Assembly (NCBI GenBank): GCA_016187225.1
Contig: JACPKC010000010.1
Span: 3,541 to 67,540 of the forward strand
DNA: 64,000 nucleotides
Origin: Candidatus Berkelbacteria bacterium
GTDB taxonomy: Bacteria; Patescibacteriota; UBA1384; JACPKC01
Reading direction: 5' to 3'
The first letter of the stretch is position 1. Every line of letters starts with the position of its first letter. The translations under genes were made by a program, and so were the position numbers. The notes under the pieces were generated by a model. That model had not been told where the DNA came from, searched no databases, and was given only the letters and a program-made list of their open reading frames with translations. Below, one piece after another: positions 29,206 through 47,519 of this stretch.

Positions 29206-29826
29206 ATGAGCGAACTAAGATCGCAGATTCTTATTCCGACCGTGATTGAAAAATCCCAGTTTGGCGAACGCGCTTATGATATTTACTCGCGTCTTCTCAA
29301 AGAGCGAATCATCTTTGTTAGCGGTACGATCGAAGACTATATGGCGAATTTAATCGTTGCCCAGCTTCTCTTTTTGGAATCCGTCGATCAGAATCGCGAT
29401 ATTCAGCTTTATATCAACTCGCCCGGCGGGTCGGTAACGGCTGGGATGGCGATCTATGACACGATGGAACATATCAAGCCGCCTGTTAGCACGATCTGTG
29501 TCGGCATGGCCGCTTCAATGGGCGCATTTTTGCTCGCCGGCGGCGCCAAAAGCAAACGTTTTGCTCTACCCAATGCGAAGGTGATGATTCATCAGGTCAT
29601 GGGCGGCGCCACTGGCCAGGCAACAGATATTAAGATTCAGGCCGAGGAGATTCTGCGCGTCAAGGCAACGATGAACAAGATTCTTTCAGAAAAAACCGGC
29701 CAGCCAATTGGTAAGATCGAAGAAGATACCGAACGCGATAAATATCTCTCGGCGGCAGAAGCTAAGGCTTACGGCCTCATCGATGATGTGATTGGAGCAG
29801 TGAGTCATGCAGATAAAAAATTGTAG
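29206..29826 (+). CDS. clpP: ATP-dependent Clp protease proteolytic subunit
   Basis: The Ser-His-Asp triad context [14 protein letters not shown] and the [18 protein letters not shown] motif are present. The RBS aaaggag lies upstream. Confidence 0.95.
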
Positions 29827-30517: not shown

Positions 30518-30761
30518 CGCAGTTAGTGAGGTTCGAATGACCCACGAGGGTTAATAGAAGCAAAAAGCGTATGCAGATTTGCAAACGATGCAACTGCATC
30601 GTTTTTGTTTGTTACAACGGGCTTCGACTTTGAACTTTGATAATTGACGCCAGCATAACTTGGTTTTTGAATTGGTTGAAAAATGAGCCTCGCCGGTTTT
30701 AGACCGGCCGCCACTGCGAGCGTTATCGCAGATATTTGAAGTTTCAAACTTCTCTTTTTGA

Positions 30762-30796
<35 letters not shown>

Positions 30797-31042
30797 TGCG
30801 CCTAACACATGCAAGTCGAGTGGGTTTAGACCCACGGCAGACGGGTGAGTAATGGCAAGGAACGTACCACGAGGTCGGGCATAACCCGCCGAAAGGCGGG
30901 ATAATTCCCGATACGCCTCCGGGTGAAAGTTTTTCGCCTCGTGAGCGGCCTTGCTCCTATCAGCTTGTTGGTAAGGTAACGGCTTACCAAGGCTCTGACG
31001 GGTAGCTGGTCTGAGAGGACGACCAGCCACAATGGCACTGAG

Positions 31043-31074
<32 letters not shown>

Positions 31075-31075
31075 T

Positions 31076-31111
<36 letters not shown>

Positions 31112-31471
31112 GACACCGCGTGGAGGAAGACGGTCTTCGGATTGTAAACTCCTTTTCTCTGAGACGATTATGACGGTACCAGAGGAATAAGCACCGGCTA
31201 ACTACGTGCCAGAAGCCTCGGTGATACGTAGGGTGCAAGCGTTATCCGGAATTATTGGGCGTAAAGAGCTCGTAGGTGGCTTTGTTCGTTCCGTGTTAAA
31301 TCTCCAGGCTCAACTTGGAGGCCGCACGGAAGACAGCAAAGCTCGAGTCCAGCAGGGGTCAGCGGAATTGGCGGTGTAGCAGTGAAATGCGTTGATATCG
31401 CCAGGAACACCGATGGCGAAGGCAGCTGACTAGGCTGGTACTGACACTAAGGAGCGAAAGCGTGGGGAGCG

Positions 31472-31509
<38 letters not shown>

Positions 31510-31580
31510 TTGCTGACTAGGTATTCGAAGTATCGACCCTTTGTGTACCGAAGCTAACGCGTCAAGTCAGCCGCCTGGGA

Positions 31581-31622
<42 letters not shown>

Positions 31623-31623
31623 T

Positions 31624-31661
<38 letters not shown>

Positions 31662-32075
31662 AGCGAGGAACCTTACCAAGATTTGACATCTCCGGAACCC
31701 TGCAGAAACGCGGGGGTGCCCTTCGGGGAGCCGGATGACAGGTGATGCACGGTCGTCGTCAGCTCGTGTCGTGAGATGTACGGTTAAGTCCGCAAACGAG
31801 CGAAACCCTCATCCTGTGTTGTATTTCACGGGAGACTGCCTCGTTCAACGGGGAGGAAGGTGGGGATGACGCCAGATCAGCGTGTCTCTTACATCTTGGG
31901 CGACACACGTGCTACAATGGCGACAACAGCGGGTCGCAAAGCTGTAAAGCAGAGCTAATCCCTTAAATGTCGCCTCAGTTCGGATTGAGGGCTGAAACTC
32001 GCCCTCATGAAGCCGGAATCGCTAGTAAACGCAGATCAGCCATGCTGCGTTGAATACGTTCTCGAGCCTTGTACA

Positions 32076-32618
32076 AAATAGAATGCGCCATTCCTTGTCA
32101 GTGGCGAGTCCGTTCAAATCGGACCTGGCCGCCAGAGACGGTCAGAAGCGAACGCGCAGTCCTGCGGAGCGATCCACAGGGTGAAGGGTGCTAGTAGCAG
32201 TATCCAGCTTGAATTTTATAAACGGCGTGATCGGTGGACGATCCTGCGTACAATTGGAGAAGTCATCTCTGTATTTTTCCGGTCGCGTATTTGGAATCGA
32301 GATGGATGCGAATTGCACTGACAAGACAATGGGAGAGCTTATAGACTCCTCTATGTGTATTCACGTGGGGGTAGATTCATCGTAAGATGGTATCGATGGG
32401 CTATAAGCAGTCTGCAGAGTCCATAGTACCCGGAGTCTCAACAGTTGTTGAGATCGAAGGGGAAGGGACTAATCCAGCCATAAAAGGATGGAGGAACTCA
32501 AACAGTTGTGCGAACAGATTGAGTTCCTTCGGGGCTAGAGCTTCGCTAGGGTACGGGAAAACCGTGTGCCCAGCGGCGACGGAACTCATGGTAGTAATGC
32601 CTGTGCAGTATCCGGGAA
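32076..32618 (+). mobile_element. ORF-less intron-like insertion in the 16S rRNA (after the CCTTGTACA block)
   Basis: About 540 nt separate ...ccttgtaca from ...caccgcccgtcac, which are contiguous in canonical 16S. The boundaries are approximate. Confidence 0.7.
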
Positions 32619-32708
32619 CACCGCCCGTCACGTGAGCCGAGTTGGTAATACCCAAAGTCCCACTTTTGTGGGCCGACGGTAGGATCAGTAAGGAGCACGA
32701 AGTCGTAA

Positions 32709-33430
32709 AATTGTTGCGACCTTGCTAGGTAACCGGCAAGAAAAACCCTGCTGTATCGGTGAAACCCCTCCTCTCTAGTAGAATAAAGATGTGAGGACAA
32801 TACCGAGGGAACCCATGCCTTCAATGGGACTCCGTAGAGACTACACGCAGGCTCCTTTGCAGGAGATTGAATCGTATCTCGTTGGCGCAAGTCACGATGG
32901 TACTTGGAATCAGCGTCACAAGACTTTTCGCTATACACAGCGAGAACGCTCTTGGCTTGAGCTGGTTCAGCGGCTACTCGGTAGCCTGAACAGACGGAGT
33001 TGGCTGTACCGTGAAGGTCAACAACGCACCGTCTGGGCACTAGAAACGACATATTGTCCTTCAGGTGACTCGTGGCACTTATTGCCACATAGTCAAATAG
33101 AATGGATTGGGTACATTCGTGGTTTCTTTGATGCTGAAGGTGGCTTACCGAAGAATGCGACAAGTCGGTTTTATTTACAATTTGTACAGAAGAACCGCAG
33201 GAAGCTCGATATAATTCGCTCGACTTTGGAGGAGTTGGACATCCCATGTGGAGCCCTTCATATACCCAGTAAGCGAGTTGATCCAAATTATTGGCGCTTT
33301 TTCGTCTCGACACGGTCACATCGAAAGTTCGCCGACGTAATTGGATCTTGGCATCCACGCAAGTCGTACATTCTCTCTGGAAGGATGAAGATATAGTCCA
33401 TGCCCTGTAGTAATATTGGGAACACCATGA
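32709..33430 (+). mobile_element. Intron in the 16S rRNA 3' region carrying a LAGLIDADG homing-endonuclease ORF
   Basis: About 720 nt are inserted between gaagtcgtaa and acaaggtatccctagggg. The boundaries are approximate. Confidence 0.75.
32791..33396 (+). CDS. LAGLIDADG homing endonuclease (intron-encoded)
   Basis: The 201-aa ORF lies inside the 16S insertion. The segment IGYIRGFFDAEGG matches the LAGLIDADG motif. Confidence 0.7.
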   Translation: MRTIPREPMPSMGLRRDYTQAPLQEIESYLVGASHDGTWNQRHKTFRYTQRERSWLELVQRLLGSLNRRSWLYREGQQRTVWALETTYCPSGDSWHLLPHSQIEWIGYIRGFFDAEGGLPKNATSRFYLQFVQKNRRKLDIIRSTLEELDIPCGALHIPSKRVDPNYWRFFVSTRSHRKFADVIGSWHPRKSYILSGRMKI

Positions 33431-33569
33431 ACAAGGTATCCCTAGGGGAATCTGGGGATGGATCACCTCCTTTCTAACGGAATTTTGAGAGCTTTGCTCT
33501 CGACCGTAGGTCGGTCTCATTTTTCAACCATTCAGCAACCAAGAGTCGTCCGGAGGGACGATTTTTGGT

Positions 33570-34052
33570 TTGAGGAGATGTGAAGTGAAATTACGCATTC
33601 GAAACGGAACAAAAATTTATTTCAACAGATGGTTCGCGGTAACGATTTTTGGGCTTCTGATTGCAAGTATTGCCATTTGGATTTTATCGAAGCCAAAATC
33701 AGCGATTCAGAGCGAAGTAGTTCAAGCCGCGGCTGAAGCACAAGCCAATATCGCGCGTGTTTTGGCGGCGCATGTTGATTGGACGAGCACCGATTTTCGC
33801 GTTGCCAACCAGGATTCAATCAACTGGCAGAGATGCAAACTCGAAGTCAATGCCGCTCAATTCGACACCGGCTATAGTGTCTTTGTCGATCAAATCAAAA
33901 TCGGTGAAACACTCGCGATTCCGCACGACAGTTTGCAAGCAAAAAACGGTGCGGTTTATAATTATTCAACCAATCCCCCTCACCGCTTTACGATTCGTTG
34001 TCAAAATGCCGACACTCGCATGGGTATCTTTATCGGTTCGGTCGCCCAGTGA
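33570..34052 (+). CDS. Hypothetical membrane-anchored protein (N-terminal TM helix plus an extracytoplasmic domain)
   Basis: 160-aa ORF about 95 bp after the 16S 3' end. It has one N-terminal TM segment, FAVTIFGLLIASIAIWIL. Confidence 0.4.
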   Translation: MRRCEVKLRIRNGTKIYFNRWFAVTIFGLLIASIAIWILSKPKSAIQSEVVQAAAEAQANIARVLAAHVDWTSTDFRVANQDSINWQRCKLEVNAAQFDTGYSVFVDQIKIGETLAIPHDSLQAKNGAVYNYSTNPPHRFTIRCQNADTRMGIFIGSVAQ

Positions 34053-34084
34053 CCCTAACAGGAGGGTGTGCTATTCTGAAAACA

Positions 34085-34486
34085 ATGAACCAAGCTCTCA
34101 AACTTGGCTGGATTAGTGTTCTCGTCTGGTGGTATCAGATTGTGCCTGGGTTGCTTGTGCATCATGCCCGGCTTTTCTTCTTGATGGTGATTGACTATTT
34201 TTCATTTGGTATTCTCGCGAGCACTCTTTTTGAGCCGTGGAAGCGCGATGAGATCTCAACGGAAAACTTAAGTTTGCAAGATAGAATTCAAGTTTTTGGC
34301 CTCAACTTAATCACTCGTTTCTTTGGTTTTCTCATGCGATCGGCCGCTATCACGGCTGGCGTCATCATCCTTCTGGCGTTGGCTTTAGTCGCTTGTTTGG
34401 TTGCCGTCTTTTGGCTTATGGCGCCCTTGCTTGCACTCATTCTCGGCGTCAATGGCATCCTGACCATCCTTGGGGGCGAGCGATGA
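34085..34486 (+). CDS. Hypothetical integral membrane protein (about 4 TM helices)
   Basis: Hydrophobic throughout. Its stop codon overlaps the ATG of the following Clp-like gene (ATGA). Confidence 0.45.
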   Translation: MNQALKLGWISVLVWWYQIVPGLLVHHARLFFLMVIDYFSFGILASTLFEPWKRDEISTENLSLQDRIQVFGLNLITRFFGFLMRSAAITAGVIILLALALVACLVAVFWLMAPLLALILGVNGILTILGGER

Positions 34487-36993
34487 TTCGTTTTGAGGGC
34501 GCGCTTGGCATTGAGCTTGCTCGACTTCAGATTCATCTTGAATCAAAATCGGCTGTTATGCTTCGATCGCTAATTATTGCCGGTGCGAGTTTTGCTCTGT
34601 TATATCTGTGTCTGACGCTTTTTAATCTCATCCCGGTCTGGCCAACTTTGTTTGGTTTCGTTGAACTGGGTTTTGGTATAGGTTTCTTATGGGGAATGCG
34701 CGAACTCTATTTGACTTGGGTATTGCATCACACCTTGCCGTCAGTTGCGCTTGCTCTGCGCACCCAGCACCCTGATTGGTTAACCACGACTAATTTTCTC
34801 GACTACGTTTCACCAGAATTGGGCAGAATTTTTTTACGAGCGCGGACTGAAGCGGGAGTTCAAGTTGATACCTTGATTAAAGCTAGTCTTACCGAACCCG
34901 TGATCAATTCGCTCCTCGCGCGCGCCGGGTTCTTAACGCCGTTAGCCACTGAAACGGAAACTACCTCGGCGCCAAAATTGCCCGAACCGATTACCGCACC
35001 CGATGCTTTACTTGCTTACGCCGCCCAAGAAGCAATTGTGCTCAAGCAGGCAGTGATCGACGTTAATCACTTTCTCTACGTGCTCGCGGAGCATTATCAG
35101 CCGGTTGCCGATCGCTTATTTGCTCACAATCTTGAGCTCAATGATTTAGCCGAAGCGATCGCGTGGTATGAACGCCATCGCCATCGCGTTCAGCGCAGAT
35201 TCTTTTGGGAGCGGGGGAAGGTGGGTATTTATGGCATTGGTCGAGATTGGTCGGCTGGGTACACGCCTACCTTGTCGCACTTCTCGATCGATCTCGCGCG
35301 CTATCTCCAGGATGCAGACTTGCAAACACAGATCGTTGGTCGTGAGCAAGTGATCGATCAGATCGAGCAGATTTTAGCGAGTGAGACGCGCACGAACGTA
35401 CTTTTAGTTGGTCGCGTTGGCGTTGGTAAGCGCACCGTGGTGAATGGGCTCGCGGCGCGAATTGCGTCGGGCGAGGTTTCTCGCAGTTTGGCAAATAAGC
35501 ATGTCCTCGAGCTCGACGTTGCCCAAGTGTTGGCCGGACTTGGAGACAGGGGCGCGATTGAGTTTCGCTTGATGCGCGTTTTACGCGACGCCGAGCGTGC
35601 TGGCAACATCATTTTATTTGTCAATAATATCCACACCCTGCTTTCTTCGGCCTACGGCAAGGTTGGCTCGATTAACGCGGGCGAAGTACTCGCGCCGTTT
35701 TTACGCTCTGGGCGGATTCAGCTTATTGCCGCAACAACGCCAATGGACTATCACGCAATCATTGAAGCCCAGGGCACGGTGAGAGATTCTTTTCGGCGAA
35801 TCGAGGTTCAGGAACCAGCGCCAACCGAGGCGGTGATACTTGCCGAAGATGTGGCTCTTCATCTTGAAGCGCGCCACGGTGTCTTTATTGCTTTGCCGGT
35901 CATCAAAAAGGCGGTTGAGTTTGGCCATCGCTATGTGCAAGGCGCGCCTTTGCCAGAAAGTGCGCTCACGCTTTTGGAGGCGGCGGCAATTCGAGCCTCA
36001 AATGAACAACGTGAATTGGTGACGTTTGAAGATATTGATGTGGTGGTTTCGGAGCAGACACGTGTGCCGGTCGGCGAGGTTCAAATGAGCGAGAAAGCTC
36101 GCCTCTTAAATTTGGAAGATGTTTTACATGATCGCGTGATCGGCCAAGATGAGGCAATTGTGGCGGTGGCAAGCGCCTTGCGCCGAGCGCGGTCTGGCCT
36201 AGGAACCGGCAAACGACCAATTGGCAGTTTCCTTTTTTTGGGGCCGACGGGCGTTGGCAAAACCGAGACGGCGCGCGCCTTGGCGGAAACGTATTTTGGG
36301 AGTGAAAAATCAATGGTGCGCCTCGATATGAGCGAGTTTCAAAGCCCAGCCTCGCTTGCGCGATTGATTGGCGCGCCAACTGAAGCGCAACAGGCGGGGA
36401 GTGGCCAGCTTACAAGCGCGATTAAGGATGCGCCGTTCAGTCTGATCCTTCTCGATGAGGTTGAGAAATCCCATCCAAACATTCTCAACGTGTTTCTGCA
36501 GATCCTCGATGATGGCCGGGTGACTGATGGTCGAGGTGAGACCGTTGATTTCACGAACGCAATCATCATTGCGACTTCGAATGCCGGCTCCGAATTTATT
36601 CGGAGCCACATTCAGGCAGGTGAAAATATGGAACAATTGCGCGACGAACTTTTGAATGCACTTCAGAGCCAAGGTTTATTCAAGCCAGAGTTTCTTAATC
36701 GATTTGACGCAGTGGTCGCCTTCAAACCGCTTTTACCAGATCAATTGATGCAAATAGTTGATTTACAGCTTAAGGGTTTGAATGCGCGTCTGGCAGAGCA
36801 AGATGTGCAAATTTCACTCACCGAGGCGGCTAAAAAACGCTTGGCCGAACTTGGTTATCAGCCGGAATTTGGCGCGCGAGCGTTGCGACGAGTTATGCAA
36901 GATCGAGTTGAAAACATGATTGCCTCGCGCTTGCTGGCCGGTGAAATAAAGCGTGGCCAGACCCTCGCCATCGACGCATCAGATCTTGAATGA
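34483..36993 (+). CDS. Membrane-anchored ClpB/ClpC-like AAA+ ATPase with a degenerate first nucleotide-binding domain
   Basis: The N-terminus has about 3 TM helices. NBD1 aligns to ClpB but has Walker A GRVGVGKRT and Walker B ILFVNNIH, where NN replaces DE. NBD2 is intact, with GPTGVGKTE and LILLDEVEKSHPN. The C-terminal domain is Clp-type. Confidence 0.75.
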   Translation: MIRFEGALGIELARLQIHLESKSAVMLRSLIIAGASFALLYLCLTLFNLIPVWPTLFGFVELGFGIGFLWGMRELYLTWVLHHTLPSVALALRTQHPDWLTTTNFLDYVSPELGRIFLRARTEAGVQVDTLIKASLTEPVINSLLARAGFLTPLATETETTSAPKLPEPITAPDALLAYAAQEAIVLKQAVIDVNHFLYVLAEHYQPVADRLFAHNLELNDLAEAIAWYERHRHRVQRRFFWERGKVGIYGIGRDWSAGYTPTLSHFSIDLARYLQDADLQTQIVGREQVIDQIEQILASETRTNVLLVGRVGVGKRTVVNGLAARIASGEVSRSLANKHVLELDVAQVLAGLGDRGAIEFRLMRVLRDAERAGNIILFVNNIHTLLSSAYGKVGSINAGEVLAPFLRSGRIQLIAATTPMDYHAIIEAQGTVRDSFRRIEVQEPAPTEAVILAEDVALHLEARHGVFIALPVIKKAVEFGHRYVQGAPLPESALTLLEAAAIRASNEQRELVTFEDIDVVVSEQTRVPVGEVQMSEKARLLNLEDVLHDRVIGQDEAIVAVASALRRARSGLGTGKRPIGSFLFLGPTGVGKTETARALAETYFGSEKSMVRLDMSEFQSPASLARLIGAPTEAQQAGSGQLTSAIKDAPFSLILLDEVEKSHPNILNVFLQILDDGRVTDGRGETVDFTNAIIIATSNAGSEFIRSHIQAGENMEQLRDELLNALQSQGLFKPEFLNRFDAVVAFKPLLPDQLMQIVDLQLKGLNARLAEQDVQISLTEAAKKRLAELGYQPEFGARALRRVMQDRVENMIASRLLAGEIKRGQTLAIDASDLE

Positions 36994-37439
36994 TTGACCA
37001 CTCATCTTCATTCTTTCTCTATTACCGTATACAATCATCTCGCAGCCGGAACTCCCCGTTCGATAAAAAATTTTGAGCGGGACGAGGGAGCCCGGACGAG
37101 AGGATTTTTGAGGCAGAAAATTGATCGTTGTACCTCTCATCTGCATCGCCCGCACGTCGGGCCATCGATCAATTTTCTGCCTTCCAGTAAGATTTCGGAG
37201 TTGGTTACGGGGTAAGTAACCATGTGTCTGGCGACTGTCAGACATGCGTGAAGTAGTAGACATCAGGCTATTTCACGCCTCCGATTTTTACCTAGGTCGG
37301 AATGCCGAAATAAGTATGAGTACATGTACATTGCGCTCACGGCATTTCGACCTTTCTCTCGGCCTCGTTCTCGCCACGGGGCCATTTTCTTGTTTACAGA
37401 AGGATTTTCCGCTATAGTTTTTGCGTTTAGGGCGTGTAG

Positions 37440-37516
37440 CTCAGTCGGTTAGAGCGCGTCACTGATAATGACGAGGTCCCAGGTTCGAATCCTGGCACGC
37501 CCACCAAAATCTGACT
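37440..37516 (+). tRNA. tRNA-Ile (anticodon GAU)
   Basis: A cloverleaf can be drawn with acceptor stem gggcgtg/cacgccc and anticodon loop cuGAUaa. The 3' CCA is encoded. This is the typical ITS tRNA. Confidence 0.9.
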
Positions 37517-38311
37517 TTACTCGTCATCCTTCTGGAGTTCGAGGCCGAGGTCGCTGAGAAACTCCTCGATCAGTCGGGCCGAACTCTCTCCGACGCCAAA
37601 CACTTCTCTTAGTGCTTTTGGAGTGTAGGTGTCGGCAAGGACACGGAGAGTCGCATCCGGAGCATTGTTCCAGAGTGGTGGTCTGTTTCTTTCCCAATCT
37701 ATAGATGTTTCACATTGCCTAGGAATTTGAAGAGCAAAGGCGAGTGGGCCAAATATCTTCAGTTTTTTTACGACGTCTAGAATGCTTTCATCCAGCATCT
37801 GAATGTCAGCTTCAGCCGAGTAGAAGTTTGAGGCGGACGGAATTCGTCCGATCTCTACCTTATCCTTTGCTCGATCTCTGAGGTATCTTGATATTCCCGC
37901 ATGCTTTAGTTTGATACCATTGAATACTAATCTTTTTATTCTCCGTAGTCTGCTCACACTCATCCCTTTTATGCGAAGCAGGTCGGTAGCGCTTGTTTCT
38001 AGAAGCTGCTGAATGGTGTAAATGCCACCATCTTGCAGTACTCGGATCATATTTCTTCTGCAAGTATCGGGGTAGCCAGGTAAAGTTGAGTCTTCTAGTA
38101 ACAAGGTTGGTGGAGTTACTTTGTCCCAAGCCACCCTCGCCAGGACAAAAACCACTCCATCTACTCGTTGATTATACTGGATGGTAAAGTAGTGGTCTTC
38201 TGGATTAGCTCCCAGGAACACCTCTATCGCTTTGGATAGATCCTCCACTTCGCCGACTGAAGCTATGACCTCGAACCTTGGCTGGTTGTCAGGGTTACAT
38301 TGAGATTCCAC
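37517..38311 (-). CDS. Hypothetical DNA-binding protein with two helix-hairpin-helix motifs (RNA polymerase alpha-CTD-like)
   Basis: TIQQLLETSATDLLRIKGMSVSRLRRIKRLV and the C-terminal LADTYTPKALREVFGVGESSARLIEEFL resemble HhH motifs. The gene abuts the tRNA-Ile 3' end in convergent orientation. Confidence 0.4.
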   Translation of the reverse strand: MESQCNPDNQPRFEVIASVGEVEDLSKAIEVFLGANPEDHYFTIQYNQRVDGVVFVLARVAWDKVTPPTLLLEDSTLPGYPDTCRRNMIRVLQDGGIYTIQQLLETSATDLLRIKGMSVSRLRRIKRLVFNGIKLKHAGISRYLRDRAKDKVEIGRIPSASNFYSAEADIQMLDESILDVVKKLKIFGPLAFALQIPRQCETSIDWERNRPPLWNNAPDATLRVLADTYTPKALREVFGVGESSARLIEEFLSDLGLELQKDDE

Positions 38312-38420
38312 GTTGATTTCCTCCTATTGAAAAATAATTTTTCAAAGAACTAGTCAATTTATACCAGAAACTCTTCGATTTGTTAACAACTTAGGTAAGA
38401 ACTTACGCTATACTCAAATT

Positions 38421-38894
38421 GTGTTATTGACACCACATATTTTGGTCGGTGCAACTGTTGGCGTCGTTGCCCAAGATCCAGTAGTTGGGTTTCTTGGTGG
38501 AGTTGCGAGCCACTTCGTTTTGGATGCAATTACGCACACCGATCCGGGTACTTGGCACTTCGATGAGCCATTTCCTCAAAAACTCGACGAACGTGATCTG
38601 ACAGTTGGTTTTACCGATGCAGCGGTCGCGTTCTTTAGTTTTCTGCTTTTAGCCGGCGTCGCGCCCCTCGTTGCGCCAGGCCCACTCGCAGGCGCTCTCG
38701 GTGGTTTGTTACCCGATGTGATTGGTCTTGCCCCGCTTTTTATACCTAAACTCGCGACCGTCAAGGGGCTCGACCGTTACTATGCCTTTACTCACCGCAT
38801 TCATCGCACGGCGCCGCCTTCAAAATGGCTACTTGGCATTTTCACGCAAATTATTGTGATAGGATTTGCCGTATGGTACTTGCTCGGCTCATAG
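38421..38894 (+). CDS. Hypothetical membrane protein, possibly related to DUF457 metal-dependent hydrolases
   Basis: 157 aa with a hydrophobic core. SHFVLDAITH loosely resembles the DUF457 His/Asp motif. Confidence 0.35.
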   Translation: MLLTPHILVGATVGVVAQDPVVGFLGGVASHFVLDAITHTDPGTWHFDEPFPQKLDERDLTVGFTDAAVAFFSFLLLAGVAPLVAPGPLAGALGGLLPDVIGLAPLFIPKLATVKGLDRYYAFTHRIHRTAPPSKWLLGIFTQIIVIGFAVWYLLGS

Positions 38895-39124
38895 TATTTA
38901 TGCTAACTTTCGGTGTCGGGCTTGGGTTGATTCGGAGCGCCGAGTGGTGTGTGCGCAATTTCGGCACGATGGACTGGGCGGAAAAACATCTGGGCCCTGG
39001 CGGCAGTTATTCTGCTTGGAAACTTTTTGGGGTGATTACGATTATTCTAGGATTCCTCTACGCAATCGGGCAGTTCAATGTTACGCCACAGGATGCAGGG
39101 ATACTCTCAACTGCGCCTTAACCA

Positions 39125-39200
39125 GGGCCAGTAGCTCATCTGGCAGAGCGCCACATTTGCAATGTGGAGGTACGGGGTTCGAATCCCCGCTGGTCCACCA
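39125..39200 (+). tRNA. tRNA-Ala (anticodon UGC)
   Basis: The acceptor stem gggccag/ctggtcc includes the G3:U70 Ala identity pair. The anticodon loop is uuUGCaa. CCA is encoded. Confidence 0.9.
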
Positions 39201-39291
39201 AAATCTGACTTTCAGAAAATTGACCGGCGCGATTTTTTCTAGAGTTATGATAAGATTATTTCACATTGAAATAACCAGAGAGGAGATATTA

Positions 39292-39510
39292 ATGACTCTT
39301 ACGAAAGAAGATTTAAAAGAACTTCGATCGATTGTGAAAGAAGAAGTATCCAACGGAATTGGAATGACCGAAGGGCGGTTGAATGACAAAATCGAAACTT
39401 CCGAAGGGCGGTTGAATGACAAAATCGAAACTTCCGAAGGGCGGTTGAATGACAAAATCGAAACTTCCGAAGGGCGGTTGAATGACAAAATCGAAACAAA
39501 CTTCTATTGA
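39292..39510 (+). CDS. Small protein with four tandem 11-aa repeats (TSEGRLNDKIE)
   Basis: The track ORF continues upstream to 38866. Met at 39292 follows an RBS-like gagagg, with ATG 10 nt downstream. The repeats are encoded by the 33-bp tandem array. Confidence 0.45.
   Translation: MTLTKEDLKELRSIVKEEVSNGIGMTEGRLNDKIETSEGRLNDKIETSEGRLNDKIETSEGRLNDKIETNFY
39368..39496. repeat. 33-bp tandem repeat of about 3.9 copies (ccgaagggcggttgaatgacaaaatcgaaactt)
   Basis: The copies are perfect except for the last few nt of copy 4. The array lies in the coding frame of 39292-39510. Confidence 0.9.
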
Positions 39511-39805
39511 ACAGTCAAAAAATGAAATCATCTCCATTTTGAGTCGAGAGATTAACGATTTAGCCGAGATTAATCATGCGATCATTGAGCGAGTGGACAA
39601 AATTTCGGAGCTCGAAAAACGGATTATTCGAATTGAGAATAAGGTCGGCATAGCCGGTTGATTTTGATGTGCTCCTCGATATCGCCTCCATAGAACTGAT
39701 ATCGATCTCGAATCTAATGAGTTTAATCGGCTCTTTCATCTCACTTATAATAAACGGGAGGTAAAGAAGAGCCAGAAAATTTATCAACTCCTCAACCCAT
39801 CAGTA

Positions 39806-40027
39806 ATGAGTCGGTTAATTGATGCTCGTTATGAGTTGGGTAAATTTGAACTCCTGTTCCGCGATCGAATCATGCTCATAAGCGTGCCCAACATGCTCGA
39901 TTTAAAATATACTAATTTTAAGAAAAAAATCGAGATCGACCATCGAGATATTACTATCGTACAGGATGAATTGGAAAAGCTACTTCATTATGTGGGTGAC
40001 ATCGTTCCAAAACTTGACCGACCATAA
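39806..40027 (+). CDS. Hypothetical protein
   Basis: 73-aa ORF with no recognisable motif. Confidence 0.25.
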   Translation: MSRLIDARYELGKFELLFRDRIMLISVPNMLDLKYTNFKKKIEIDHRDITIVQDELEKLLHYVGDIVPKLDRP

Positions 40028-40088
40028 ATACTTGACATCCATGAGAGAGAGGTAGGATTCAATTAGAATGAGTTGAATAAGGGGGAAT

Positions 40089-40790
40089 ATGAAAGAAGAG
40101 CAAGGGCTTTGGGGAAAATTACGGTTGCTTTATACGAATCCACGTGAATTCTGGCAGTCAGTCGGTCAAGACCATAACATTCGTACTCCACTTATTTTAT
40201 GGTTCTTCCTATCTCTCCTGCCGATCATTTTGCTGGGCGCGTTCATGCTTACATTGGGTAACGCTGATGCATCTCGCTATTATTCTCTGATTGCGCTCCT
40301 CTTCATTGTTGTGTCCTTTATTGGTTTGTTCATGAATAGCACCGGCCTCTATTTTGGAGCCAAAGCCTTCAATGGCACGGGAAGTTTTACGCAGACTTTG
40401 AAAATCTACGTATATTCCACGCTTGCACCTTTTCTTCCTGCCTTCTTTATTACTCTTTTATTCATATTTTTCCTGTTTTTGATTGATCGGGGGAATGAGT
40501 CTGCTACGTTCTCGCCGCTTGTCGTAGGGACTATGATGCTTATTCCTGCCCTAGGCATCCTCATCTACCAAATCGTACTCATTGTCCGAGGACTCGAGGT
40601 TGTCCATACGCTTTCGAATGGCAAGGCAATCTTAGCCTGGCTCCTTGGATTGGTCTTGACGTCAATAGTGTCCAGTATGGTGGCGCCGGTTGTGGGTATT
40701 CCACTGGCTGGCTTTCTTGCAGATTCGATTGAGTCTTCCTCCACATCTAATCCGGAAACATCCCAACTAGAACAAGAATTCTCAATGTAG
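40089..40790 (+). CDS. Yip1-domain-like integral membrane protein
   Basis: 233 aa with about 5 TM helices. The N-terminal soluble segment followed by a multi-TM core resembles Yip1/YIF1-type proteins. Confidence 0.4.
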   Translation: MKEEQGLWGKLRLLYTNPREFWQSVGQDHNIRTPLILWFFLSLLPIILLGAFMLTLGNADASRYYSLIALLFIVVSFIGLFMNSTGLYFGAKAFNGTGSFTQTLKIYVYSTLAPFLPAFFITLLFIFFLFLIDRGNESATFSPLVVGTMMLIPALGILIYQIVLIVRGLEVVHTLSNGKAILAWLLGLVLTSIVSSMVAPVVGIPLAGFLADSIESSSTSNPETSQLEQEFSM

Positions 40791-40826
40791 GGCTCCTGTG
40801 CTAAACGCTAACTATCAGGCGTAATA

Positions 40827-40860
40827 CAAAACACACCGGCCAGAGCCGGTGTGTTTTGTT
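40827..40860. terminator. Bidirectional rho-independent terminator between convergent genes
   Basis: The hairpin aaaacacaccggc-caga-gccggtgtgtttt has A/T runs on both sides. Confidence 0.7.
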
Positions 40861-40873
40861 GTTGTTTAGTGGA

Positions 40874-41269
40874 TCAGTTGACTGCAAGGATCATGCCCAT
40901 CACTACGAGCGTGAGTAGTTGATTACCATTATTGATTAGCCACAAATCCCATGATCGGTCTTCCCAGGCGGTGTTCATTAAAGAATATGTGGCGACGAAA
41001 CCAAGCCAAATCCAAAATCCAAGCAGGGCGCCCTCGCCAAGCGTATTTGCCTGTTTATATTCGATGAAGTAGGCAAAGATATATGCCGTTATGAATGCCG
41101 CCGCGATACTCGCAACGTAGCTCGCGCTGGCGCCAGAAAGATTACTTTTTTTATTGCCGATCGCCTTCATCCAGGATTCAGTGAAGACTCCATACCAGGT
41201 CGCGCCAATTACAACTGCGGCCGCCGCGGCCATGACGATCGCCCATAGATTGACAGAGACTTCAGACAT
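40874..41269 (-). CDS. DUF1761-like small membrane protein
   Basis: About 130 aa with 4 TM helices and conserved Trp/Gly positions (WMKAIG, FWIWLGFVATY). The start is taken at MSEVSVNLW. Confidence 0.45.
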   Translation of the reverse strand: MSEVSVNLWAIVMAAAAAVVIGATWYGVFTESWMKAIGNKKSNLSGASASYVASIAAAFITAYIFAYFIEYKQANTLGEGALLGFWIWLGFVATYSLMNTAWEDRSWDLWLINNGNQLLTLVVMGMILAVN

Positions 41270-41367
41270 AAAATTTCTCTCCTTCTTCTTTTTAAAGTGT
41301 AAAGAATGAAGAATAAAGAGTAAAGAATACATTTATTACTCGACAAGTTCTGGCTAAGAGTGTCAAA

Positions 41368-42132
41368 ATGCAAATTATGGATTATTCTCGGATTTTTGTT
41401 ACTGGCGCTTCGAGCGGAATTGGCGCCGCGCTGGCGCGCGCGTATGCCCGACCGAATATAATTCTTGGTTTGGCGGCGCGCCGCGTTGAAAAACTTAAAG
41501 CGGTCGCTCAGGACATTCGAGATCGTGGCGCCCAAGCGTATATTTATGAACTCGATATAACGGATATCGATGCAACTGAATGCGTCGCCCAAAAATTTGT
41601 AAAAAGTGCGGGCGGGATTGATTTAGTGATTGCTAATGCCGGCATTGGCGGCTGGGCGCATCCAGTTCAAACCGATCCGAGAAAATTAACTACGATTATC
41701 AACACGAACGTGAACGGGGTTATTAACACGGTCGGGGCGTTTTTGCCGTCAATGGTGGCCGCGCGGCGCGGTCACCTGGCTGTTTTGAGTTCAATCGCCG
41801 GTTTTAGGGGTCTGCCCGGCGGAGTCTATTCGGCTTCAAAGGTTGCCATTCGTTATATGTTGAATGGTTGGCGATTTGATCTCAAGCCTTACAATATCCA
41901 TGTTACAACTCTTTATCCGGGTTTTGTTGAAACCGAGATGACGGGGAGTAAGCGTTGGTATCCATTTTTAATCAGCGCCGATCAGGCGGCGGTTGAAATA
42001 AAACGGGCGATTCAGCAAAAGAAAGCACATTGGGTTTTTCCTTGGCCATGGCGTTTGATCGTGCCGATTTTGCGGATTTTGCCAGGCGTTTTAATTCGCA
42101 GGCCAGTTCGTTCGCTTTCGAACCGTAAATAA
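41368..42132 (+). CDS. Short-chain dehydrogenase/reductase (SDR)
   Basis: The cofactor motif is TGASSGIG. The catalytic motif is YSASKVA (YxxxK). The NAG-like motif is IANAGIG. Confidence 0.85.
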   Translation: MQIMDYSRIFVTGASSGIGAALARAYARPNIILGLAARRVEKLKAVAQDIRDRGAQAYIYELDITDIDATECVAQKFVKSAGGIDLVIANAGIGGWAHPVQTDPRKLTTIINTNVNGVINTVGAFLPSMVAARRGHLAVLSSIAGFRGLPGGVYSASKVAIRYMLNGWRFDLKPYNIHVTTLYPGFVETEMTGSKRWYPFLISADQAAVEIKRAIQQKKAHWVFPWPWRLIVPILRILPGVLIRRPVRSLSNRK

Positions 42133-42146
42133 TTTACAATTATGAT

Positions 42147-42599
42147 ATGCAGATTAAGAGTTCAGCTTTTGAGAATAATGGCTCCATTCCTAGGCAGTAT
42201 ACTTGCCAGGGAGAAAGTTTAAGCCCGCCACTTACAATTAACGATGTGCCAGTTGAGGTGAAAAGTTTAGCTTTGATTATGGAAGATCCAGATGTGCCGC
42301 GTTCAATTCGCCCCGATGGCATGTGGGATCACTGGGTGATTTGGAATGTCGATCCAAAAACAGTTGAAATTTTGGAAGGCATCGAACCCAAAGGAGTGTA
42401 TGGCCAGACAACCTCAAATACTCAAAAATACGTCGGTCCCTGCCCACCAGATCGCGAACATCGCTATTTCTTCAAGCTTTACGCGCTTGATGCTAAATTA
42501 ACTCTCACGCCAGGGAGTTCAAAACGTCAACTTGTCTCGGCGATGCAGGGGCATATCTTGACTACTGCGACCCTGATTGGTCGCTATAAGAAATTTTAG
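42147..42599 (+). CDS. YbhB/YbcL-family phosphatidylethanolamine-binding-like protein (PEBP)
   Basis: The segments DHWVIWNV...GP.PP...HRYFFKLYALD match the bacterial PEBP signature. Confidence 0.8.
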   Translation: MQIKSSAFENNGSIPRQYTCQGESLSPPLTINDVPVEVKSLALIMEDPDVPRSIRPDGMWDHWVIWNVDPKTVEILEGIEPKGVYGQTTSNTQKYVGPCPPDREHRYFFKLYALDAKLTLTPGSSKRQLVSAMQGHILTTATLIGRYKKF

Positions 42600-43537
42600 C
42601 CCAACCGCTTGACAACCCCTCAAAACATCGGTAGAAATATAAATAGGCATGAGTGTTAACCCAACAACTTGGAGGAAACGCGCGGTCTAGGCTCACCACT
42701 TTTTGGTGTTTTTCCGCCGCGGTCGGCGGTTTTTTATGTCCGATGGCCTGCTGTCCTGAAGTAAATATTTCGGAGAGCTGGTGATCAGCCGAACTTTCAC
42801 AATATGGTTCTAAAAGTGAAGTGGCAATCACACCGAGAAAATTATGGGAATCGTATTGAGCAAAGAGCTTCTGCGGTTCTCCGGATACATTAAGGGCGTA
42901 TGGTGGATGCCTTGGGAGAAGAAGCCGACGAAGGACGTAGCGGGCTGCGATAAGCTTCGGGGAGGTGCCGAGCAACCTTTGATCCGAAGATGTCCGAATG
43001 GGGAAACCTTCCTGCTTGAAGAGCAGGAGACGTCAGGTTTGCTCCCCCACAGTAATTCCACCGTCAGATCCAGACACTAACGGATCGTACGACGGTTTTT
43101 AAAGCGGATTCACTGTGGAGGGGCAAACCTGATGTCGGGCACCTGGGGAACTGAAACATCTTAGTACCCAGAGGAAGAGAAAACAAAACACTCTGTTTTG
43201 AGTGAAATTTTATGATGGATTTCAGAATCGGATGTAGGTGTTCGTTTATCACGGATTCCGACCTCCGTTTTCTGTCATCCGTCCTCTGAAATTTGTGATT
43301 CCGCTAGTAGCGGCGAGCGAACGCGGACCAGCCTTGCGACGGGATGGCAAAAATGAATAGCTGAATGCTCCTGGAACGGACAGCCAAAGAGGGTGAGAGA
43401 CCCGTAAGCGAAATTCTTTTTTGTTCTGAACGTTGCCGTTTTGTTCTTTAATTTGAGCAAAATGCAAGTACATCGAGACACGTGAAATCTCGATGGAAGA
43501 CCGGTGGATCATCATCGAAGGCTAAATACTTCTTCTC

Positions 43538-45485: not shown

Positions 45486-46306
45486 AACATTGGGGTGCTG
45501 CAGGAGTAATTCTGTACCAAAAATGTGGCTTATAACGGTGAACCCCCACTCTTTACAGTGGTACAATGAAGTAAAGAAGGGCGATACCGTGGGAAGTCTG
45601 ACCTCAATCCAACACGCGATTTTGGTAGGAAGTATGCTAGGCGATGGTACACTACGCAAACAAGGCGCAAGAAAGAACGCCTTATTTGAAGTGAACCATT
45701 CAGTCAAGTTTAAAACCTATGTTGATTGGAAGTGGAAACACTTTCAAGAGTATGTTTTAACACCACCAAAATCACGCCTCGGTAAAGGCGTTCGTGTTGC
45801 GTATCGGTTTACGACTCGTAGCCTTCCGATTTTTACCAGTTATTACCGCTGGTTTTACCCAAATCAGAAGAAACAGCTTCCAGATAATATTAAGCTAGAT
45901 GCCAAAGGTTTGGCAGTTTGGTTTATGGATGATGGAACACGATGTCGGAATGCAACCTATTTCAATACCCAGCAGTTTCGCATCGCAGAGCAATGTCTCT
46001 TGCGGCGGCAACTAAAGAAGATTGGAATTAGGTCGACATTAAGTCGAGATAAGCAGTATTGGCGTTTATACGTTGATACTGAAAGCACGAAAAGACTAAT
46101 GCAAATTATTAGCCCTTACGTTTTATCTTGCTTCCAATACAAATTGAGATATGACCCCGTAACGACTGAGTCGAAAGACGAGATTTCGAACGCAAGTTCG
46201 AGATAACACGCCACCTCCTATTTTGTCAGCTAGACATGGCTTAGGCCTCTGTCTAGTAATAGGAAGAAGATATAGTCTGCACCATATGTAAATATGGATT
46301 AAAGTA
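45486..46306 (+). mobile_element. Intron in the 23S rRNA domain V (after GTTTGGCACCT)
   Basis: About 820 nt separate gtttggcacct from cgatgtcggctcatc, which are contiguous in canonical 23S. It contains ORF 45490-46206. Confidence 0.75.
45490..46206 (+). CDS. Double-motif LAGLIDADG homing endonuclease (intron-encoded)
   Basis: Two motifs are present: [10 protein letters not shown] and AVWFMDDGT. The true start is probably an internal codon. Confidence 0.7.
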
Positions 46307-46399: not shown

Positions 46400-47170
46400 A
46401 AATTACATTGCGCTCTACTCTTGAAATGGAGTAGGATACGGGTGCACATCGCACACAACCGACCCAACCCGTCGGTTACCGTATCAACATCTGACTAAAA
46501 TCGGTGAAACCCAATCACCAACGACCAAACGTTGGAAAGGGCAATACCGAGGGAAGATCAGGTCGTGACGAACGAAGAGAAAGCCTACATAGCGGGATTT
46601 TTAGATGGTGATGGTTGCATTATGGCGCAGTTGGTTCGTCGAAAAGATTACATTTTTGGCTACCAAGTGCGGACAAGCATTGTCTTTTACCAGAATCAGA
46701 CTCACCAAGAGATCCTTTCTTGGCTCAAATCGATGCTAGATATTGGCTACATCCGTCAGCGGAATGACGGTATGGCTGAATACACCATCGTTGGATTGCG
46801 TGACGTGCGACACATTGTTGCACTGTTGCTTCCGTTCCTTCGTCTCAAACAGGAATTAGCACAACTGATCATTCACTTGATTGATTCGTATCCAGCCACC
46901 ATGACGCCAAACGAACTCGTTCGTCTTGGCAGACTGGTAGATGCGACGGCAGCGTTCTCGTATTCAAAACGACGAACGAATACCGTTGCGACTGTGATCG
47001 ATTTCCTGCACCAACACGATCTTTTCCCCGTAGAGACTTCGACTACTCGCAAGAATGGTAGTCGGGATTCCTCGTAGGCGAGGGATAATACGTCAGCCCC
47101 TCCTTTGGATTATTTCTTCCAAAGAGGGTGAAGATATAGTCCGTGCCACCAGGAATGGTGGAACAACACG
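46400..47170 (+). mobile_element. Second intron in the 23S rRNA domain V (after AGAACGT)
   Basis: About 770 nt separate gggttcagaacgt from cgtgagacagtttggtcc. It contains ORF 46532-47077. Confidence 0.75.
46532..47077 (+). CDS. LAGLIDADG homing endonuclease (intron-encoded)
   Basis: YIAGFLDGDGCI matches the LAGLIDADG motif. The 181-aa ORF lies wholly inside the insertion. Confidence 0.7.
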   Translation: MERAIPREDQVVTNEEKAYIAGFLDGDGCIMAQLVRRKDYIFGYQVRTSIVFYQNQTHQEILSWLKSMLDIGYIRQRNDGMAEYTIVGLRDVRHIVALLLPFLRLKQELAQLIIHLIDSYPATMTPNELVRLGRLVDATAAFSYSKRRTNTVATVIDFLHQHDLFPVETSTTRKNGSRDSS

Positions 47171-47347: not shown

Positions 47348-47519
47348 GGCCCCAAGATTAGGTTTCTTTAAGACCCGTCGGAGATTACGACGTTGATAGG
47401 CTCGAGGTGGAAGGCGCGTAAGCGTTGGAGCCGTAGAGTACTAATGGTCGCAGTATTCGGAGAACCGCAGAGGTTCGTTGATCGTGGTGATCGCTACTTC
47501 ACATAATTTAGCTAGAGTG

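Follow-up and report, generated by a model that had tools for sequence, protein, structure and literature searches.

A putative membrane-anchored branch of Clp/Hsp100 ATPases in Patescibacteria and its candidate membrane partner

Clp/Hsp100 proteins are the textbook example of protein threading by pore-loop tyrosines, and both of their ATPase rings are normally active. We analysed a locus of Candidatus Berkelbacteria that encodes a putative membrane-anchored member of this class (hereafter the ATPase) and a small membrane protein, OrfB, whose gene overlaps that of the ATPase. The locus lies in a stretch of 64,000 nt (contig JACPKC010000010.1, positions 3,541 to 67,540, forward strand), which is designated as the window and from whose first nucleotide all coordinates are counted. 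The ATPase represents a distinct Hsp100 subfamily with a new partner and probably works by a different mechanism from its relatives. The two genes and the domains and motifs of the ATPase, including its nucleotide-binding domains (NBD1 and NBD2), are as follows.

34085-34486, + strand: orfB, membrane partner of 133 amino acids (aa), NCBI start; examined with an AlphaFold2 (AF2) model (predicted local distance difference test, pLDDT, 92.5), exhaustive phmmer and a family hidden Markov model (HMM)
34483-36993, + strand: membrane-anchored Clp/Hsp100 ATPase, 836 aa, with an ATGA overlap with orfB
34546-34731, + strand: N-terminal transmembrane (TM) hairpin, aa 22-46 and 54-83, assigned by Kyte-Doolittle hydropathy, AF2 helices, clade conservation and charge count
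34735-35190, + strand: probable double N-domain of a divergent Clp_N-like type, aa ~85-236, in which residues 149-172 form a disordered linker (hhalign, AF2 helices)
35200-35274, + strand: aromatic linker FFWERGKVGIYGIGRDWSAGYTPTL, aa 240-264, peculiar to the family and joining the N-domain to NBD1 (homologue alignment)
35269-36003, + strand: NBD1, catalytically degenerate (alignments and motif table)
35410-35436, + strand: NBD1 Walker A, GRVGVGKRT
35530-35562, + strand: NBD1 pore loop, LAGLGDRGAIE
35611-35634, + strand: NBD1 Walker B, ILFVNNIH
35779-35805, + strand: NBD1 arginine-finger site, VRDSFRRIE
36100-36717, + strand: NBD2 large subdomain, ATPase motifs intact
36241-36264, + strand: NBD2 Walker A, GPTGVGKT
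36370-36408, + strand: NBD2 pore loop, GAPTEAQQAGSGQ, without tyrosine
36442-36465, + strand: NBD2 Walker B, LILLDEVE
36571-36582, + strand: NBD2 sensor 1 (TSN)
36691-36708, + strand: NBD2 arginine finger, FLNRFD
36736-36969, + strand: ClpB_D2-small domain (Pfam PF10431, E 1.9e-24), including sensor 2, GARALRR (36871-36891)

Fold and motif states of the ATPase

The ATG of the ATPase gene shares 4 nt with the TGA of orfB (..GCGATGATT..), so that the ATGA overlap with a small membrane protein, described in a first-pass annotation of this DNA, is present in the sequence and supports translational coupling. The start at 34483 is favoured over an upstream TTG because MIRLxG is the N-terminus of all full-length homologues of the ATPase; a TTG start, which would overlap orfB, was rejected. 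The 836-aa product is 100% identical to a Candidatus Berkelbacteria protein labelled generically as a Clp ATP-binding subunit. Since the identical protein is found both in an NCBI metagenome-assembled genome of Berkelbacteria and in an independent Logan assembly, the unusual residues of the ATPase are not assembly errors, and an artefact was ruled out as their source.

Alignment to ClpB and ClpC across both rings, as the first-pass annotation had stated, was obtained with phmmer against PDB sequences, in which ClpB of T. thermophilus (E 3e-141) and ClpC of B. subtilis (E 2e-138) were matched with both NBDs covered. Pfam gave the order AAA, AAA_lid_9, AAA_2 and ClpB_D2-small and detected no peptidase domain, and the AlphaFold model (pLDDT 83) had its best Foldseek matches among ClpC/ClpB structures (E 3e-53). 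Pfam, the PDB alignments and Foldseek thus agree on two AAA+ modules in the order expected of class-1 Clp/Hsp100 proteins. The ATPase did not reach half of any curated NCBIfam equivalog cut-off compared (ClpB, ClpA and ClpV), scoring 539 bits against ClpB TIGR03346, its best match (cut-off 1232), 458 bits against ClpB NF008118 (1417), 491 bits against ClpA TIGR02639 (993) and 422 bits against ClpV/TssH TIGR03345 (885). The long coiled coil of the M-domain is missing, again in line with the first reading: residues 505->508 of the query span ClpB 394->509 (~115 residues) and ClpC 402->466, and the AF2 model contains no coiled coil.

The N-terminus had been read as about three TM helices in place of the usual N-domain. 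A TM segment is indeed found, with two helices rather than three: the AF2 helices H22-46 and H54-83 coincide with the Kyte-Doolittle maxima and are separated by an uncharged loop of 5 residues, while the preceding helix H8-20 is amphipathic and carries charges. Rather than taking the place of the N-domain, the hairpin appears to be followed by a retained, divergent Clp_N-like domain. In hhalign, family residues ~85-245 aligned in register with canonical ClpB N-domains (probability 94.7%, E 6e-8); Pfam Clp_N was undetected in the window ATPase and remained sub-threshold in its homologues (17.2 bits vs 20.7). The aromatic linker that follows has the consensus FFWERGxVGxxGIGRDWxxGYTPTL, in which F241, G251, W256, G259 and Y260 are invariant in the homologues aligned. 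It also occurs in members fused to OrfB (see below) and is absent from canonical Clp proteins.

The degeneracy of NBD1, first noticed as GVGKRT and NN, is confirmed by alignment with ClpB and ClpC and goes further, since the arginine fingers and the pore tyrosine are lost too. Walker A reads GRVGVGKRT instead of the canonical GEPGVGKTA, with the lysine retained and the Mg-ligand threonine replaced by arginine, and Walker B reads ILFVNNIH instead of ILFIDELH. Both arginine fingers are gone (RR to DS), and so is the pore-loop tyrosine (AKYRG to LGDRG). Judged from these substitutions, normal ATP hydrolysis should be beyond NBD1.

NBD2 had been called intact, and this holds for Walker A and B, sensor 1, the arginine finger and sensor 2, of which FLNRFD and GARALRR are both invariant in the homologues. 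It does not hold for the pore loop, which has lost its tyrosine and reads GAPTEAQQAGSGQ where ClpB reads GAPPGYVGYEEGGQ, with PTEAQQAG replacing GYVG. This loop is fairly conserved (PTEAQ) in the Berkelbacteria sub-clade. The stretch of NBD2 that carries the ClpP-docking [LIV]G[FL] in ClpA/ClpC-type sequences is deleted in the ATPase, as in ClpB. A check for the IGF/LGF loop, which the first-pass annotation had suggested, found no such loop in the ATPase: the only matching strings, LGF62 and IGF66, are inside TM2. The reading of the ATPase as a class-1 Clp/Hsp100 paralogue that is tethered to the membrane, and in which NBD2 is the only ring competent for catalysis, is supported. A pseudogene or decaying paralogue was considered and rejected, given that the NBD2 motifs are invariant and the family has >1000 members.

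The ATPase family and its membrane partner

We found 17 full-length homologues of the ATPase at 48-59% identity, and more distant ones keep the same layout. In a motif table of 39 clade members and 15 canonical ClpB/ClpC/ClpA sequences, the N-terminal hydrophobic hairpin and all NBD2 catalytic motifs were present in every clade member (39/39), while KYRG, GY[VI]G, the NBD1 arginine fingers and the ClpP loop were present in none (0/39). In the canonical sequences the pattern was reversed with respect to hairpin, pore loops and NBD1 arginine fingers (15/15). A ClpP loop was found in all ClpA/ClpC-type comparators and in none of the ClpB comparators.

A Saccharimonadia-type profile alone gave 1013 ATPase matches at E<=1e-60. 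Among the best 119 of these, a hydrophobic segment at the N-terminus is present in 118 and a pore tyrosine motif (KYRG or GY[VI]G) in none. GK[TS] and DE or DD persist in NBD1 of the Saccharimonadia-type branch; the decay of Walker A and B (GK[KR]T; DN, NN or KD) is therefore specific to the Berkelbacteria-type sub-clade, in which the window protein (KR and NN) has the most degenerate NBD1. A neighbour-joining tree of both NBDs separated the family from the canonical sequences with a bootstrap of 100/100, and the distance from the family to ClpB (1.20) exceeds that from ClpB to ClpC (0.72). The taxa carrying the family among the matches listed are Berkelbacteria, Saccharimonadia, Parcubacteria and unclassified Patescibacteria, and the ATPase can be placed by sequence in a large, Patescibacteria-wide branch of class-1 Clp/Hsp100 proteins.

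The traits that we propose for this family are all found at the window locus, namely the TM hairpin, orfB directly upstream, no aromatic pore loops, no NBD1 arginine fingers, intact NBD2 motifs and the GxGRDWxxGYTP linker. Family sequences are already public under generic names ('ClpC', 'AAA family ATPase'). The searchable full-text literature yielded no description of a membrane-anchored Hsp100 without pore tyrosine, nor of the OrfB family, and the full text of the paper on Southlakia epibionticum (PMC10633639) contains no description of the family.

OrfB consists of an N-terminal helical domain (WWY at aa 15-17; FS and TLFxPWKRD at aa 38-56) followed by a C-terminal TM hairpin at aa ~87-129. 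Because charged residues occur in its first helix across the family, this helix is presumably cytosolic or peripheral, not TM. OrfB matched no Pfam family, and 50 homologues gave only scattered chance matches. A word-indexed homology search with OrfB returned OrfB itself only, and exhaustive HMMER was needed: phmmer then gave 427 cluster representatives (50% identity) at E<=1e-3, most of them of 120-135 aa and several of 800-900 aa. The long proteins, together with P0020, are N-terminal fusions of the OrfB domain to the same type of ATPase (P0020, P0201, P0218, P0238, P0244, P0250 and P0268).

Of the 17 family loci whose upstream region is intact, 15-16 have a match to the orfB-family HMM in the open reading frame (ORF) directly upstream of the ATPase gene. 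These loci originate from Berkelbacteria, Saccharimonadia, Parcubacteria and unclassified Patescibacteria; the match was weak in locus L018, and orfB was undetected in L019. No other neighbour is general across the family loci. Adjacency, translational coupling and repeated fusion make a physical complex of OrfB and the ATPase very likely.

In L014 (8051-9100), L018 (8026-9075) and L019 (8050-9075), the ATPase gene is immediately followed by a Glycos_transf_4 gene (GT4, MraY/WecA-like), and such a gene is found in its vicinity in L005 (4182-5231). This neighbour hints weakly at a connection with the cell envelope.

Mode of action and comparison with known systems

We rate as an even chance that the ATPase and OrfB form a membrane machine of two components, powered by ATP and needing neither ClpP nor DnaK, in which the NBD2 cycle works on the membrane module or a client associated with the membrane. 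The ATPase would be a hexamer like its relatives, and its TM hairpins would, judging from known Hsp100 hexamers, hold the face formed by the N-domain and NBD1 against the cytoplasmic side of the membrane. The TM hairpin of OrfB may pack beside that of the ATPase, giving ~4 TM helices per protomer, and its cytosolic WWY/TLFxPWKRD domain may sit beside the N-domain and the GRDW..GYTP linker. In type-II AAA+ proteins such as NSF (D2) and PEX1/PEX6 (D1), one ring assembles and the other works. NBD1 would likewise be a static assembly ring and NBD2 the sole motor, although NSF and PEX1/PEX6 belong to an AAA+ clade different from that of the ATPase. Hydrolysis in NBD2 would be passed on to this module or client, which could be remodelled, extracted or gated, and the cycle would involve neither tyrosine-based hand-over-hand threading nor coupling to DnaK, nor ClpP.

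The first-pass annotation had proposed a disaggregase or unfoldase with a single active ring. One competent ring and the membrane tether agree with this proposal. The activity itself is doubtful: the M-domain, on which coupling to DnaK depends, is absent, which makes a DnaK-coupled disaggregase role doubtful, and the pore aromatics are missing (0/39 and 0/119), so that with aromatic loops absent from both rings, canonical threading of polypeptides is unlikely. Membrane protein quality control, also proposed at that stage, is possible and would need a non-canonical grip.

A probable counterpart of the pair exists in the genetically tractable saccharibacterium Southlakia epibionticum, which makes the question directly testable. 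SEML1_0700 of this organism is an AAA family ATPase of 860 aa with AAA_2 at 544-706, ClpB_D2-small at 713-792 and no Clp_N, and it is preceded by an overlapping hypothetical gene of 127 aa, SEML1_0701 (PMC10633639). Transposon sequencing gave the calls NE/NE/GD for both SEML1_0700 and SEML1_0701, with reads changing from 4124 to 1638 and from 258 to 51 (PMC10633639, Table S1/S2). The same genome encodes a canonical ClpC (SEML1_0512, two Clp_N and UVR) and a ClpP (SEML1_0493), both of which are non-essential (PMC10633639). The orfB-ATPase pair is carried by the Saccharimonadia loci L015, L020 and L023. If the orthology is true, the system is dispensable in laboratory co-culture and adds fitness, and both genes behave alike.

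Several points weigh against the two-component machine as we have drawn it. We infer the hexamer, the topology and the contact with OrfB, and the TM assignment is one of hydropathy and AF2 only. With its Walker A lysine retained, NBD1 may still bind nucleotide. The conservation of the NBD2 pore loop in the Berkelbacteria sub-clade hints at a remaining contact with something. Some working AAA+ rings, such as p97 D1 and NSF D2, are without aromatic pore loops; with this precedent, the loss of the tyrosines renders canonical threading unlikely and leaves translocation possible. The orthology of SEML1_0700/0701 to the pair is probable on architecture and gene order, not confirmed by sequence, and no match of the Saccharimonadia-type profile was named Southlakia. 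In addition, the contigs of L018 and L019, which carry typical members, bear the unverified label 'uncultured Gammaproteobacteria'. Both are probably Patescibacteria bins under a wrong name; should the name be correct, the family extends beyond the candidate phyla radiation.

Among known systems, ClpB/Hsp104 shares with the ATPase the class-1 double AAA+ fold, the highest scores, an NBD2 that is ~50% identical, the absence of a ClpP loop and the ClpB_D2-small domain. The ATPase differs from it in having no M-domain, no pore tyrosine and an inactive NBD1, and in having a TM hairpin and a membrane partner. The likeness to ClpA lies in a continuous alignment from NBD1 to NBD2 without an M-domain (ATPase 258-831 vs ClpA 163-736), and ClpA/ClpC resemble it further in that the best Foldseek matches are ClpC; the N-domain of the ATPase may be double as well. 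Unlike ClpA/ClpC, the ATPase lacks the ClpP loop, the UVR/M-domain of ClpC and the pore tyrosine, and is membrane-anchored.

The ATPase could be imagined as the ClpP partner of the window genome, replacing ClpX downstream of tig-clpP; both genes lie 4.7-7 kb upstream, their order is kept in L001 and L003, and no clpX follows clpP in the window. We regard this as highly improbable, and the partnership with ClpP envisaged in the first-pass annotation is not supported, because the docking loop, which all ClpA/ClpC-type comparators possess, is deleted as in ClpB; besides, Southlakia has a canonical ClpC and ClpP alongside the probable orthologue. A conventional membrane-tethered unfoldase or extractase that draws membrane proteins into its central pore with non-aromatic loops and delivers them to a protease, or releases them for refolding, would recall FtsH or Msp1/ATAD1, whose N-terminal TM anchor likewise brings the entrance of the ring to the cytoplasmic membrane face. 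Such a role fits the position of the pore entrance, the complete motor of NBD2, the moderate conservation of its loop in the sub-clade, and the presence of tig and clpP in the conserved neighbourhood. FtsH and Msp1/ATAD1, however, have a single classic-clade AAA ring with aromatic pore loops and, in FtsH, an M41 peptidase, whereas the ATPase has two rings of the Hsp100 type and carries neither a peptidase nor aromatic loops. Given that an aromatic or hydrophobic pore-loop residue was found in 0/158 members in either ring, that neither a ClpP loop nor a peptidase domain is present and that the loop sequence varies across the wider clade, we consider an extractase of this kind unlikely.

If threading is given up altogether, the ATPase might be a nucleotide-dependent switch or scaffold, like Torsin-LAP1 or plant SMAX1, with NBD2 regulating OrfB or a cell-envelope enzyme. 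Torsin with LAP1/LULL1 is similar in being related to Hsp100 NBD2 and membrane-associated, in having no aromatic pore loops and in having a small membrane partner (PMC5425593, PMC4358337). The loss of the pore loops in both rings, the dead NBD1, the small membrane partner that is almost always adjacent, the GT4 gene that follows immediately in L014, L018 and L019 and is close by in L005, and the mild fitness effect of the probable Saccharibacteria orthologue all speak for a switch. Torsin is, however, a single luminal ring that receives its arginine finger from the partner; the ATPase has two rings, NBD2 has an arginine finger of its own, and the AF2 model of OrfB shows no AAA-like fold. The invariance of this finger and of sensors 1 and 2 indicates selection for full hydrolysis cycles, and the envelope-gene neighbourhood occurs in only 4 of ~19 loci, so that we hold a pure switch to be quite unlikely. 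A more radical alternative is a new translocon motor, in which the 24 TM helices of six ATPase-OrfB units form a channel coaxial with the AAA+ pore and move a polymer through the membrane. It would resemble HSP101-EXP2 in PTEX, where an Hsp100 is docked on a membrane pore (PMC7355975), although HSP101 is soluble, retains the pore tyrosine and the M-domain and uses a separate protein as the pore. The ~4 TM helices per protomer in split and fused forms alike, the polar pore lining, acidic instead of tyrosine, and the confinement of the family to Patescibacteria among the matches listed speak for such a motor. Against it, no channel-like conserved polar TM residues were seen, though no dedicated examination was made; the hairpin loops are very short (5 residues), and no cargo or secretion genes are consistently linked, which leaves the translocon very unlikely. 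Patescibacteria are largely host-dependent, and it is an equally long shot that the coaxial TM ring and acidic double pore would serve them as a lineage-specific translocon or extractor of lipids or polymers, with, e.g., host-derived material as the cargo.

The branch is conserved over a very large bacterial radiation of tiny genomes, and in it the pore tyrosines of both rings were lost, one ring was switched off, and an anchor and a partner were gained. This leaves two possibilities: useful work by AAA+ double rings through a different mechanism, or a membrane process of Patescibacteria that has so far escaped notice.

Genomic setting in the rRNA operon

The features that surround the pair in the window are as follows.

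33430-33476, + strand: last 16S rRNA exon and 3' end (..GGATCACCTCCTTTCT), by blastn against the uninterrupted 16S of L001
33585-34052, + strand: orfA, 155 aa, a single TM helix at the N-terminus and an extracytoplasmic domain that contains Cys
37361-37383, + strand: terminator-like hairpin of 8 bp, 6 GC, followed by a T-run (consensus scan; weak)
37430-37506, + strand: tRNA-Ile(GAT), which closes the cluster on its downstream side within the rRNA operon; L001, L003 and L011 share this order

Comparison with the 16S of L001 gave exons at 30755-32075, 32618-32708 and 33430 to ~33476, and the Rfam end at 32119 is too early. The location right after the 16S rRNA, as first annotated, is thus correct with the true 3' end at ~33476. 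Insertion 1 (~542 nt, 32076-32617) contains a group-II-intron D1-D4 Rfam match at 32372-32468 (39.9 bits, gathering 35), and insertion 2 (~721 nt, 32709-33429) contains a LAGLIDADG ORF at 32791-33396.

The first gene after the 16S is orfA, which begins ~110 nt past the mature 3' end. Homologues with 36-40% identity occupy the same position in L001 (7091-7537) and L003 (7077-7541), and the Cys motifs RCKLEV and FTIRCQ are conserved; no Pfam match was obtained. In close Berkelbacteria relatives orfA always lies between the 16S and orfB, and outside them it was not found beside the orfB-ATPase pair. OrfA is at most a candidate third component of the system.

The window has the order 16S, orfA, orfB, ATPase, tRNA-Ile, a minus-strand ORF (37517-38311), a membrane ORF and tRNA-Ala. 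L001 and L003, with ATPases that are 56% and 53% identical to that of the window, have the same arrangement without the minus-strand ORF. A reduced order (16S, a 271-aa ORF, orfB, ATPase, ... tRNA-Ile) is found in a distant Berkelbacteria genome with a 16S of 79% identity, and in L008 the 16S is directly upstream of the pair as well. Outside Berkelbacteria the pair is not within an rRNA operon. In promoter and terminator consensus scans, site counts were not above the shuffled expectation and speak neither for nor against co-transcription with the 16S.

Upstream of the rRNA operon lie genes for PGK, trigger factor, an NTP-transferase, ClpP and a small hydrolase-like ORF. The clpP gene (29206-29826) is 4.7 kb upstream, close to the 5 kb given in the first-pass annotation. 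No clpX follows it within the window, and a tblastn search of the window for further AAA+ genes related to either NBD was negative.

The stretch from 16S to tRNA-Ala is syntenic in Berkelbacteria genomes whose 16S is only 79-90% identical (L001, L003 and L011). The 264-aa ORF at 37517-38311 (- strand), with a weak helix-hairpin-helix match, is absent from the syntenic L001 and L003 and is therefore probably an insertion in the window genome. A conserved membrane ORF of 157 aa (38421-38894) lies between tRNA-Ile and tRNA-Ala. Just past tRNA-Ala, a perfect 33-nt tandem repeat (39368-39497, 3.9 copies, 100% match) encodes repeats of EGRLNDKIETS in one frame. Yip1, DUF1761, SDR and PEBP genes are located between tRNA-Ala and the 23S (rRNA operon region 33476-42883). 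The 23S Rfam match covers 2650 nt of a 2925-position model, and two LAGLIDADG ORFs, at 45490-46206 (PF03161, E 3e-36) and 46532-47077 (PF00961, E 7e-12), are found between the Rfam end of the 23S at 45532 and the 5S at 47519; the 23S is probably also split by endonuclease-bearing insertions.

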